IMG/VR virus record: IMGVR_UViG_2671181122_000011
Strand: one strand, 5' to 3'
Length of the DNA: 11,406 bases
Origin: a virus
Lineage: Duplodnaviria; Heunggongvirae; Uroviricota; Caudoviricetes
Shown: piece after piece, positions 2,058-3,977 of the stretch
How the letters are laid out: every line of letters starts with the position of its first letter
Numbering within the stretch: the stretch's first letter is position 1
Translations under genes and position numbers: made by a program
The notes under the pieces: model-generated
What the model saw: the letters and a program-made list of their open reading frames with translations, nothing else
Databases searched by the model: none
Told to the model about the DNA's origin: nothing

Positions 2058-2291
2058 AATATCAAACAGTTACCGCGCCGACTTCCTCAAATTGAGGTTT
2101 CCGAAAATATCAGCGGGTTAGCGATTAAGCTGACGAGTAATTAAACTGCGAAAATTTCGTAGTTTGTGACTATCTGAAAGATAGTCGGTTGTTCCGGCCT
2201 CAGCCGTTGGCTGTTTCCGAAAATATCAGTAGGTTAGGCCAAAGCTCAAAAATGAGCTTTGGAACAATATCAACAAGTTACCGCCGTAACC
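2058..2291. repeat. Pair of direct repeats plus hairpins in a noncoding region
   Basis: GTTTCCGAAAATATCAG(C/T)(G/A)GGTTAG occurs at 2097..2120 and 2213..2236. AATATCAA(AC/CA)AGTTACCGC occurs at 2058..2078 and 2264..2284. A perfect hairpin AAAGCTCA-aaaa-TGAGCTTT lies at 2241..2260 and GACTATC-tgaaa-GATAGTC at 2168..2186. Confidence 0.5.
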
Positions 2292-2559
2292 GCTCCGGCT
2301 TCTTCCAGTGGTACGTAATTTTCTCCGTTTCCCGATACAGTGCCACGCGGCGATTGTAGGCCAGCATTTCAAGAACGCGGATCCGTATGTTGCGCATATC
2401 CACATCATTAAGCTGGATACCATCACGGCGCATCACCTCAGCAACAACACGCGCATAATTTTCGGCTGTCACGCTGTCCGGCTGCGTGGCCTGTTCGTCA
2501 GTCTGCTGGCTGATTCCACCAGCACGGCGGATTAATCCCAGTATTTCGGCTTCTGTCAT
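2278..2559 (-). CDS. Hypothetical protein, 93 aa, function unknown
   Basis: ORF with ATG at 2557-2559 and a GGGTG motif just upstream. Its start lies about 30 bp from cos copy A and it is transcribed away from it. I do not recognise the family. Confidence 0.45.
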   Translation of the reverse strand: MTEAEILGLIRRAGGISQQTDEQATQPDSVTAENYARVVAEVMRRDGIQLNDVDMRNIRIRVLEMLAYNRRVALYRETEKITYHWKKPERLRR

Positions 2560-2592: not shown

Positions 2593-2815
2593 CGGGTCCT
2601 TCCTGGAATTATGGACCCGTTACGGGGCGGCGACCTCGCGGTTTTTATCTGTTTATGAAAATTTTCCGGCAAAAGTCAGATCCGTTCTTCTTCTCTGTAA
2701 CAGACTGTTTAACAATGAAAATATTAAAAAAAGAAAGGATCTGACACGAGGCATTTTAGCCAGAAAATGCCATTATCAGATCCTTTCTCATTTTTGTTCA
2801 ATAATTGCGCGTCTG
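2593..2815 (+). other. Lambda-type cos site, copy A (cosQ-cosN-cosB)
   Basis: GGGCGGCGACCT, the 12-nt lambda cohesive-end sequence, lies at 2625..2636 preceded by CGGGTCCTTCC...GTTACG (cosQ-like). Downstream are TTTATGAAAATTTTCCGG, TCCGTTCTTCTTC (R3-like), an AT-rich I1-like stretch, AAAGAAAGGA (R2-like) and TCCTTTCTCATTTTTGTTC (R1-like), matching the recalled first ~190 bp of lambda. Confidence 0.8.
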
Positions 2816-3358
2816 TTACTCGCCTTTCTTCTGTAGCAACTTTTCCGGTACGTTTCCGGTTGTTTCTTTCAAGTAATCAGCCAGTATCTGTGGGAGGTTG
2901 TCGGCAACTCTGGCACTGGCATTACAGGCTTTAACCACTTCCCTTTTAAGCCTATCCAGCATGGCGGGGGTAATCTGTGGGAAGCTCCTTTGCATAGTAA
3001 GCGGGAGGCTGTCCATGATTGATGAAATCTGACTCGCCAGCTTTGAAAGCGCGTACAGGCAAAACTCAGTATCAATCACGTCACCGCGATCGCGCTCGTT
3101 TTTAAGTTCCTGCGCCTCCGCCTGTGCTGTCAGTAATCTGATCCTGACTCGTAAGAGTTCATCATCATCAATATCGCCTTTGTCGTTTGTAAGCTGGCTA
3201 ATTGCATTGTTAACCCTATTGTCTATCACGCTGGCAACATCATAAAACGCCTCACGGCCTTTACGTTCAACGGGAGTCACTCCCCACTTGTCGAACGCTG
3301 TCGCACTTACACGGCAGCTTTTCGCCATGTTTTTTTTGTTCATCAGGTGCGATTTCAT
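2816..3358 (-). CDS. Terminase small subunit, lambda Nu1-like (180 aa)
   Basis: N-terminus MNKKNMAKSCRVSATAFDKWGV...YDVASVI parallels lambda Nu1 MEVNKKQLADIFGASIRTIQNWQ...YDSAAVI (wHTH). Located about 135 bp downstream of cos copy B in the lambda-like arrangement. The true start may be the internal ATG at 3343. An 8-bp-stem hairpin (3362..3395) sits just 5' of the start. Confidence 0.85.
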   Translation of the reverse strand: MKSHLMNKKNMAKSCRVSATAFDKWGVTPVERKGREAFYDVASVIDNRVNNAISQLTNDKGDIDDDELLRVRIRLLTAQAEAQELKNERDRGDVIDTEFCLYALSKLASQISSIMDSLPLTMQRSFPQITPAMLDRLKREVVKACNASARVADNLPQILADYLKETTGNVPEKLLQKKGE

Positions 3359-3534
3359 TAATACACCAACTTAATTACTGCTTCAGGTTGGTGTATTGTT
3401 TGCATCTTTCCCTTTTTATTCATAAAGATAGATCAAACAACGAAACCACCACCACCCCCCTGAAAAGGCTCATAAATAGCGAAAAACCGCTAGGTCGCCG
3501 CCCCGTAACGGGCCATAATTCCAGGAAGGACCCG
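3359..3534 (-). other. Lambda-type cos site, copy B (cosQ-cosN plus divergent cosB-like spacer), cognate orientation for terS
   Basis: Reverse complement of 3470..3534 reads TTTACGGGTCCTTCCTGGAATTATGGCCCGTTACGGGGCGGCGACCTAGCGGTTTTTCGCTATTTATGA. The cosN 12-mer corresponds to 3492..3503 on the minus strand. Sequence between cosN and the terS start diverges from lambda cosB. Confidence 0.75.
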
Positions 3535-3535
3535 T

Positions 3536-3557
3536 AAAAAAGCCGGATTTCTCCGGC
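3536..3557 (-). terminator. Intrinsic terminator (GCCGGAGAAATCCGGC hairpin plus T-run on minus strand)
   Basis: Hairpin at 3542..3557 with adjacent A-run at 3536..3541 on plus (T-run on minus), immediately 3' of the 137-aa gene. Confidence 0.6.
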
Positions 3558-3563
3558 CTTGTC

Positions 3564-3977
3564 TCAGATGGTTTTCAGTATGCGATCGATGTCGCCGTCA
3601 TCGCCCTGGTTTCTGCCATCGTATGCCATGCCAGCTGATACGGCTTGCGGGCTGTGCATGTCCATAAAGTTTTCAAAGGCTGCGGTAAGTTCCGGCGCAA
3701 CCTTCGGACGTTCCTGCTCTATGGTCATGCTAAGGATGCTTTTAGCCGTACCAACATCGATACAAGGCACGTTTGCCATTGCACGCAACAGCGGCTGATA
3801 GTCTTTATGCTCATGAAGCGCCATAATCGCATCAGCGCGCGGCTTGTCCTGCTCTTCCAGTTTGTTTAGTTGATATACGGCCTCATAGGTTGATAAACCT
3901 CTGTCAGCCATTGCCCGCGCTTCGACTTTAAATTTACTCGCCAGCGGTAGCGTCATGATGCTTTCATTCGTTGCCAT
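3564..3977 (-). CDS. Hypothetical head-module protein, 137 aa
   Basis: ORF with strong RBS (AGGGGGAA) 5' of the ATG at 3975-3977. Starts 12 bp after the gpD-like stop, so it belongs to the same operon. No family recognised. Confidence 0.6.
   Translation of the reverse strand: MATNESIMTLPLASKFKVEARAMADRGLSTYEAVYQLNKLEEQDKPRADAIMALHEHKDYQPLLRAMANVPCIDVGTAKSILSMTIEQERPKVAPELTAAFENFMDMHSPQAVSAGMAYDGRNQGDDGDIDRILKTI

Follow-up and report, generated by a model that had tools for sequence, protein, structure and literature searches.

The 11,406-nucleotide stretch of viral DNA analysed here (IMG/VR virus record IMGVR_UViG_2671181122_000011, referred to as the window) carries two lambda-type cos sites between positions 2593 and 3534. 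They lie in inverted orientation on either side of a gene for a small terminase (TerS) of the Nu1 family. This region is almost certainly a packaging module of the kind published as cos1/cos2 in EcCICFT073, a phage-inducible chromosomal island (PICI) in which the gene between the two sites is rppA. In the reading that we prefer, to which we give a probability of about 0.5-0.6, the pair would provide dual specificity: the minus-strand site, copy B, would serve the TerS encoded by the island, and the plus-strand site, copy A, a different class of helper phage. An earlier note, made from the sequence alone, had described two convergent packaging sites that differ in the region recognized by terminase, and this description stands: both cos sites are complete, and their cosB regions differ, with an R triplet in copy A only. 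Its proposal that one site is for a helper terminase and the other for the element's own TerS is the one that the comparative evidence set out below appears to support best.

The likeness between the two sites is confined to their outer parts. A gapped alignment of 2593-2669 on the plus strand with the reverse complement of 3459-3534 has 68 matches in 77 columns and one gap (88%), so that the inverted arms of about 65 bp reported in the earlier note are confirmed and turn out to be slightly longer. The local score of this alignment is 58, compared with 21 for the best of 300 shuffles. A repeat search divides the arms into two pairs, 2616-2669/3459-3512 (54 nt, 85%) and 2593-2617/3510-3534 (25 nt, 96%), with one indel between them. 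Both arms contain the exact 12-nt lambda cohesive end GGGCGGCGACCT, at 2625-2636 (+) and 3492-3503 (-), and two such matches occurred in none of 200 shuffles. Both also contain a cosQ-like GGGTCCTTCC, at 2594 (+) and 3524 (-), and the right-flank motif of cosN, TATTTATGA. When the two copies are aligned with the cos sites of lambda and PhiR5_1 and with cos1 and cos2 of EcCICFT073, cosQ, cosN and the TATTTATGAAAATTTT flank are kept in all six, and the likeness stops at the start of cosB. Comparison of both copies with lambda cos, which had been suggested as a check, gives the same picture of a conserved cosQ, cosN and flank with divergence from cosB onward. One base of the copy B core is unusual: position 3491, directly after the cohesive end, is substituted, giving CCTAGCGG where the related island L001, the island of Nissle 1917, CFT073 and lambda have CCTCGCGG. 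The change is seen only in the window and a near-identical contig, L063, and might alter how copy B is nicked.

Copy A is a genuine phage-type cos of an identifiable cosB class. It contains three exact CAGATCC(G/T)TTCT elements, at 2677 (+), 2732 (-) and 2777 (+), and these R3, R2 and R1 elements (CAGATCCKTTCT) stand at +52, +107 and +152 from cosN, the corresponding lambda offsets being +52, +108 and +153. All the features that define a lambda-type cosB are present, namely a forward R3, a reverse R2, a forward R1 and an I1-like spacer. The stop codon of the antisense terS falls at +191 from cosN, and the Nu1 start of lambda is at +189. The three R elements and the position of this stop codon bear out the original description of copy A as a complete lambda-like cosQ-cosN-cosB that meets the 3' end of an antisense terS.

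The phages to which this class belongs were not apparent from a search of a phage database with copy A, in which no named phage covered more than 65% of it, and they surfaced through a scan of IMG/VR with the R3..R2 pattern CAGATCCKTTCT-N(35-55)-AGAAAGGATCTG. The pattern occurs in 91 loci, 65 of them upstream of a forward Nu1 homolog, as in a phage, and about 21 in the island layout. Two of the phage-type loci, L099 and L078, also have an exact GGGCGGCGACCT cosN and the R offsets 52/107/152 of copy A. In E. coli, the CAGATCC class is found in prophages of the SerU-LTIIb type, in 251 genomes. Members of the class (SerU-LTIIb, KU052038; L099, L078 and L011) have R3, R2 and R1 elements identical to those of copy A in sequence and offset but, unlike the island, continue from cosB into a forward Nu1 and a large terminase gene, and most have another cosN. 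Two variants of the island site, L008 and L006, which were retrieved by similarity and not by the R pattern, differ from the copy A cosB of the window by 24 and 28 substitutions, respectively. All of these lie in the 118 non-R positions and none in the 36 R positions (hypergeometric P = 9e-4 and 2.4e-4). Because substitutions spare the R elements, copy A looks functional and under purifying constraint.

Copy A also appears to be uncoupled from the island TerS, which seemingly does not read it, because the island of Nissle 1917 encodes an identical TerS protein (WP_000835278.1) and has the same copy B but carries a 21-like R set at copy A. The boundaries of this swap are exactly the cosN flank and the 3' end of terS. 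Sequences 94-98% identical to the Nissle R3 segment occur at other chromosomal positions in 549 further genomes, where they are presumably prophage cos sites. The CAGATCC copy A is itself found with three classes of island TerS (100%, 81% and ~50% identity). The inverted cos pair is kept in 22 of the 22 other island-type loci examined (23 with the window), and in six of them (L032, L033, L062, L067, L076 and L085) the cosN differs between the two copies, for example GGGGTACGGATACG versus GGGGCGGCAGACG. In E. coli STEC316 (L008, L102), there are three cosN sequences, two in the island and a third in a co-resident prophage whose R elements belong to the class of copy A, and no two of them are the same. 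Such differences argue for two separate packaging systems rather than a duplication.

The cosB of copy B is of another kind. As the earlier note had it, copy B leads into terS through a different and shorter cosB-like spacer, which extends over 3359-3458 up to the start codon and is present in 472 E. coli genomes. Within it lies an inverted pair, AATACACCAAC (3360-3370) and GTTGGTGTATT (3388-3398). There is no R triplet in copy B and no CAGATCC-like match, but only (GGT)n and AATACACC motifs. A profile search of genome contigs with an alignment of island TerS proteins returned two loci only, both of them islands with a single cos, in Kosakonia sp. S29 (L103, 3321-4010) and Superficieibacter sp. 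(L104, 3321-3990). The cos is of the copy B type in both, and no second cosQ or cosN flank motif was found within 7.5 kb. These islands have E-like and D-like genes and a TerS that is 54-56% identical to that of the window with the same unusual N terminus. Two motifs of copy B recur in their cosB: a TGGTGGTGGT-GTTGTTGTT tract, equally far from cosN, and a CAATACACC(A/C)AC motif ahead of the start codon. Another class of island TerS, of 194 aa, has the 21-type helix VDPRTIERWQ, and its copy B has 21-type R elements (CATGTCGGTACT…). The cosB of copy B thus tracks the DNA-binding domain of TerS across genera, as would be expected if copy B were the site cognate to the island TerS. Both the copy B cosB of the window (3443-3460) and the cos1 cosB of CFT073 (L002, 7610-7625) contain a (GGT)n/(ACC)n tract, at a similar distance from cosN and on opposite strands; the two islands have it in common despite the presence of TerS in one and RppA in the other.

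The protein encoded between the two sites has the architecture of a complete small terminase. It matches Pfam PF07471 over residues 33-148 (2.3e-23, 83 bits against a cutoff of 30), PHROG 57 over residues 1-174 (3e-53) and, in an hhalign comparison, the phage Nu1 profile over residues 6-166 (probability 100%, E 6e-42), and it is collinear with Nu1 until about 15 residues before its C terminus. Its closest phage relatives, N15 gp1 and the Nu1 of PhiR5_1, are 41-46% identical. The possibility that it is an Rpp protein, a homolog of the 144-153 aa RppA/B/C, was rejected: BLASTP against RppA gives E = 1.4, and the protein has 180 aa and full Nu1 architecture. The Nu1 proteins of CAGATCC-class phages have the helix-turn-helix (HTH) sequence DVRTITxWQSQGL and the C terminus WIDDFRRxEG, whereas the TerS of the window has SATAFDKW-G and a different C terminus. 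The motif LPxxLxDYL in its C-terminal part, which is like that of lambda and PhiR5_1 and unlike that of the CAGATCC class, is a candidate large-terminase-binding segment, and the tail DYLxETTGNVPEKLxQxKGE is common to all classes of island TerS that have two cos sites.

A search for terS between inverted cos sites in other genomes found the layout in hundreds of E. coli genomes and, with rppA as the central gene, in EcCICFT073. Among 5426 complete E. coli genomes there are 486 in which at least 80% of the 1401-nt region around the two sites is present as one place, and every top match listed is a single collinear piece. The opinion of the earlier note that no such layout had been described was mistaken, as the same inverted pair around rppA has been published as cos1/cos2 by Fillol-Salom et al. 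(2018, ISME J, PMC6092414; 2019, Mol Cell, PMC6739421). EcCICFT073 "carries two cosN sequences", and both sites have been cloned (PMC6092414). Deletion of cos1 lowers transfer, and deletion of both sites abolishes transfer by lambda and phi80 (PMC6092414). A heterocomplex of RppA and the helper TerS recognizes the cosB of cos1 (PMC6739421); both sites support phage-mediated transfer, and that from cos1 depends on the island factor (PMC6092414, PMC6739421). From cos1 the reading direction leads into rppA, and cos2 points at the 3' end of that gene (PMC6739421 Fig S1A; PMC6092414 section 12, Fig S5). Because the published sequences give the same readings relative to the specificity gene, copy B is the equivalent of cos1 and copy A that of cos2. 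The two papers call the cosB of PICIs 'completely divergent', assign no R elements and leave open the reason for two sites, and their text does not stress the inverted orientation (PMC6092414, PMC6739421). A full-text literature search found no later paper on cos1/cos2.

EcCICFT073 occupies the same phoQ/roxA site as the island of the window, with the same 93-aa, 137-aa, D-like and E-like flanking genes. Its inverted cosQ-cosN arms, of 77 nt and 82% complementary, lie 657 nt apart around c1503 (rppA, 144 aa) and are about 94% identical to the flanks in the window. It differs in having RppA between the sites, for which BLASTP detects no similarity to the 180-aa Nu1 homolog of the window, and in both of its cosB regions, that of cos2 having CATGTCCGGTT elements and that of cos1 a CACCACCACCAC tract. 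The R class of cos2 (CATGTCCGGTT, three times) stands before a forward TerS gene in 86 viral loci and beside an antisense rppA with inverted cos in six. The occurrence of a full TerS in the Rpp slot of sister islands bears on the proposal that Rpp proteins evolved from TerS (PMC6739421).

The cos of lambda itself shares with the window the identical 12-nt cohesive end, the conserved cosQ and right flank, three R elements in the same orientation with spacing within 1 nt and, over residues 6-166, a homologous TerS. It differs in the core of its R elements, CGTTTCC compared with CAGATCC in copy A, in continuing into the Nu1 start rather than the 3' end of an antisense terS, and in having one cos site instead of two. 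The island has no gpA gene, unlike lambda, so the endonuclease must come from the helper. Functional analogies are found among the Staphylococcus aureus pathogenicity islands (SaPIs). In pac-type SaPIs, a satellite small terminase redirects the large terminase of the helper to its own site, and the cos-type SaPIbov5 and SaPIbov4 are satellites that carry a helper cos; two putative cos sites have been reported for SaPIbov4 (PMC6092414). These systems are presumably unrelated in sequence to the island of the window, and the pac-type SaPIs use headful pac, whereas the island of the window has a lambda-type cos.

In the mechanism that we propose, two complete lambda-type cos sites with their cosB sides inward would bracket the packaging-specificity gene, which is Rpp in EcCICFT073 and a Nu1-type TerS here. 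Copy B would be the island's own site. Its cosB would be read by the island TerS, which would recruit the large terminase (TerL) of the helper phage to cut the copy B cosN, and packaging would start there, cross terS and continue along the island concatemer until the next copy B is reached. Copy A (2593-2788) would be a copy of a phage cos from cosQ through R1, truncated where the phage Nu1 would start, and a helper of the copy A class would package the island in the opposite direction with its unmodified TerS-TerL. Termination of packaging in lambda needs cosQ-cosN in the correct polarity. Because of this requirement, the inverted site met 0.8 kb after initiation would be ignored by the terminase. 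At both the start and the end of packaging, each cos would pair only with copies of itself along the concatemer, which would give matched ends and complete units, and recombination between the arms would invert the cassette instead of deleting terS. Both the assignment of proteins to sites in this island and the rationale of the inversion are what we infer from these comparisons. More tentatively, and at somewhat less than even odds, the inverted cos pair may be a packaging cassette of modular build and dual specificity that is general among enterobacterial PICIs. The cos1/copy B site would then be read by an island factor (TerS or Rpp), and the cos2/copy A site would be a complete phage-class cos, exchanged horizontally (CAGATCC, 21-like or CATGTCCGGTT, sometimes with a different cosN), that gives a second helper range independent of the factor; the inversion would have been selected against mixed ends and loss of terS.

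Several observations weigh against the dual-specificity reading. The benefit of a second cos site has never been demonstrated in EcCICFT073, where deletion of cos2 raises transfer by lambda and phi80 (PMC6092414) and where the native helper, phi4, has a 21-like cosB and not one of the cos2 class. The SerU-type prophages of the CAGATCC class in E. coli have a cosN different from that of copy A, and no co-resident prophage with the copy A cosB was found at the megablast level in 413 carrier genomes (median of one place per genome). The winged-helix/HTH region at the N terminus of the island TerS is collinear with Nu1 in a low-confidence alignment only, in which the recognition helix lacks 3 aa and the wing is shorter, and a sequence search of the PDB with TerS, the N-terminal domain included, gave no meaningful match. 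The co-variation of copy B with TerS could in part reflect their tight physical linkage. TerS-encoding PICIs of strains IHE3034 and 18098 were not transferred upon induction of resident prophages; the cos architecture of these islands has not been described (PMC6092414). As to the location of the first of these, the roxA/phoQ site of IHE3034 is empty. Lastly, the copy of the island in the window may be immobile because it is joined to prophage e14 at 8766 and has lost its integrase/AlpA (int/alpA) end.

Some of the same observations would suit a copy A without function, a relic or a scar of recombination left when a fragment of phage cos was captured beside terS; a scar had indeed been offered as an alternative in the earlier note. 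Loss of cos2 does not lower the transfer of EcCICFT073, islands that have this type of TerS but a single cos show the second site to be dispensable, and carrier genomes lack a matching co-resident prophage. Against this, copy A has kept its cosQ, cosN, right flank and three R elements intact, spaced much as in a phage, and substitutions avoid the R elements (P about 1e-3) while the spacers diverge. The pair is also kept in all 23 island-type loci, across TerS classes that are only ~50% identical and across different types of cosN, and where copy A has changed it has been replaced by other intact phage-type cosB sets and has not decayed. In addition, cloned cos2 of EcCICFT073 supports the transduction of a plasmid, and both sites have been described as functional. 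A relic or scar is accordingly disfavoured, and we regard it as unlikely. If copy A is functional, it might be read by the island TerS as well, which would give bidirectional packaging from a single specificity protein. Both sites do adjoin terS and have cosQ and cosN in common, and other Nu1-type sites are similar to the right half (TCCTTTCT) of the R element in copy A. The two cosB regions have no R elements in common, however, the recognition helix of phages with CAGATCC sites is different, and an identical TerS is accompanied in Nissle 1917 by a wholly different copy A cosB, all of which makes this improbable. We find it just as improbable that copy A acts mainly as a decoy that interferes with a helper of the matching class by diverting or wasting its terminase. 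PICIs of the EcCICFT073 family do interfere with helper packaging through the terminase, and cos2 is costly for transfer with non-cognate helpers, but a complete cos with cosQ would package island concatemers productively, and decoy and hijack are inseparable from sequence.

Two further explanations concern the repeat itself. Inverted repeats around a segment of ~0.8 kb could serve as crossover points for a programmed switch, which would turn terS around and so change the direction of packaging; the window contains a gene for a DNA invertase (8812-9402), and in another lineage of islands the cassette is in the opposite orientation relative to the backbone. That invertase is pinE of e14, however, which lies beside mcrA and the icd duplicate and is absent from 28 other island loci, and the arms are unlike the invertase-type crossover sequence at the e14 junction. 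The orientation is uniform in 12 of 12 close relatives, and all listed matches in the 486 genomes are single collinear pieces. A switch is thus highly improbable, and its serine-invertase (Hin/Gin/Pin) form was rejected, as pinE is unlinked to the island elsewhere and the window lineage has one orientation. The lineage with the opposite orientation comprises L006 (NZ_CP054662), L014, L035, L062 and L097, in which the entire cos-terS-cos cassette has been turned round with respect to the backbone genes and the 93-aa gene, so both orientations of the cassette are viable. In L014 and L097, terS is reduced to a remnant of ~19 aa and both cos sites are kept. In UM146 (L227; 3731-5478, 9101-9642), the island lies between cspD and clpS, and its primase and terS are annotated as frameshifted, which indicates decay of packaging genes in some lineages with retention of both cos sites. 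An assembly artefact, a mis-joined or collapsed repeat, might be suspected from a source contig that is apparently draft-derived and has an odd junction at 8766; it is effectively excluded because the same structure is present in hundreds of independent complete genomes, including CFT073, Nissle 1917, UM146 and O157:H7 strains.

The packaging module is set in an island; the features of the module and its neighbours are listed in Table 1. The window begins with phoQ (1-1461), and the DNA that follows matches an island of ~11 kb between phoQ and roxA in many E. coli genomes. As annotated in L001, this island encodes an integrase, AlpA, an Icd-like protein, a P4-family primase, SSB, an E-like major capsid protein, a D-like decoration protein, the 137-aa protein, TerS and the 93-aa protein, which is the gene set of a Gram-negative PICI. 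The set is complete in the relatives L001 and UM146, which also have the family's single direction of transcription, specific att site and size of about 10-12 kb, and the int/alpA side is missing from the window. Classification as a capsid-forming PICI (cf-PICI) was rejected, since intact relatives have only the E-like, D-like, 137-aa and TerS genes and no portal, TerL or protease. The 93-aa protein is annotated in L001 and CFT073, and in 12 of 12 close relatives of the window lineage, all of which have the cassette in the same orientation, it lies on the copy A side. The 137-aa protein has a weak match to the C-terminal part of head-maturation-protease profiles (phrog_53, 6e-9), which suggests a scaffold-like domain beside the E-like and D-like capsid genes. 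The hairpin adjoining the cosQ of copy B is likely the intrinsic terminator of the upstream capsid operon; a consensus scan for promoters and terminators gave four promoter-like sites against 2.0 expected and did not list it.

Table 1. Features of the inverted cos region and its immediate neighbours in the window
Feature	Position	Strand	Basis
Conserved island gene for a 93-aa protein of unknown function; borders copy A as the island gene nearest phoQ	2278..2559	-	phrog_1561, 1.3e-55
cosQ of copy A (equivalent of published cos2)	2593..2607	+	GGGTCCTTCC at 2594; aligns to lambda cosQ
cosN of copy A	2620..2641	+	GGGCGGCGACCT at 2625-2636; columns invariant relative to lambda, PhiR5_1 and CFT073 cos1/cos2
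Conserved right flank of copy A cosN (TGTTTATGAAAATTTTCCGG), end of arm	2648..2669	+	Alignments of arms and with lambda
R3 of copy A cosB (CAGATCCGTTCT)	2677..2688	+	Exact match to consensus; offset +52, same as lambda
I1-like R3-R2 spacer (TAAC...TGTTT), putative integration host factor (IHF) site	2695..2720	+	Aligned with lambda IHF site I1 and PhiR5_1
R2 of copy A cosB (CAGATCCTTTCT on minus strand)	2732..2743	-	Offset +107, lambda +108
R1 of copy A cosB (CAGATCCTTTCT)	2777..2788	+	Offset +152, lambda +153
Island small terminase, Nu1 family, 180 aa; divergent N-terminal DNA-binding region, island-specific C-terminal tail	2816..3358	-	Pfam, PHROG, hhalign
cosB of copy B (equivalent of published cos1)	3359..3458	-	(GGT)n-GTTTCGTTGTT tract, plus-strand 3440-3460; AATACACCAAC/GTTGGTGTATT pair just before terS ATG
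Copy B arm: cosN right flank, cosN (cohesive end 3492-3503), cosQ (3520-3534)	3459..3534	-	Repeat and motif matches
Hairpin GCCGGAGAAATCCGGC followed by TTTTTT (minus strand); adjoins copy B cosQ	3535..3557	-	Read from sequence; also in CFT073
137-aa conserved island gene; flanks copy B	3564..3977	-	phrog_1999, 4e-67; synteny

Between phoQ and the 93-aa gene (2058-2284) there are nested pairs of direct repeats, GTTTCCGAAAATATCAGCGGGTTAG at 2097 and 2213 and AATATCAAACAGTTACCGC at 2058 and 2266, which could be att-proximal or regulatory. At the other end, island sequence gives way at 8766 to the end of prophage e14, with a tail-fibre fragment, pinE (8812-9402), the HNH endonuclease gene mcrA (9509-10342) and the icd duplicate; past these genes, this part of the window (8766-11406) enters the icd/ycgX region, inverted relative to phoQ. 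The window equals the IMG/VR contig L063 minus 822 nt exactly at 8766, and a Pin-type crossover-like sequence, TTCTCCCAAACCAACGTTTATGAAAA, begins at 8767. Either the PICI and e14 have truly undergone an inversion or rearrangement with each other here, or the junction arose during assembly.

PICIs carry virulence and defence genes between enterobacteria, and the phages that package them set the host and helper range of each island. The layout with two cos sites was already known from EcCICFT073 and is here found in a TerS-bearing member, so no new kind of system is established. What is added is that the second site can be assigned to a definite class of true phage cos and is swapped independently of the island specificity protein, that some islands contain two different cohesive-end sequences, and that a large group of E. 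coli islands, including those of O157:H7, O26, O145 and Nissle 1917, uses a full-length TerS in the position of Rpp. For the question of why an island should have two sites, which was left open, these comparisons yield the testable hypothesis that the second site would expand the range of helpers, and they point to the classes of helper phage that may be involved.

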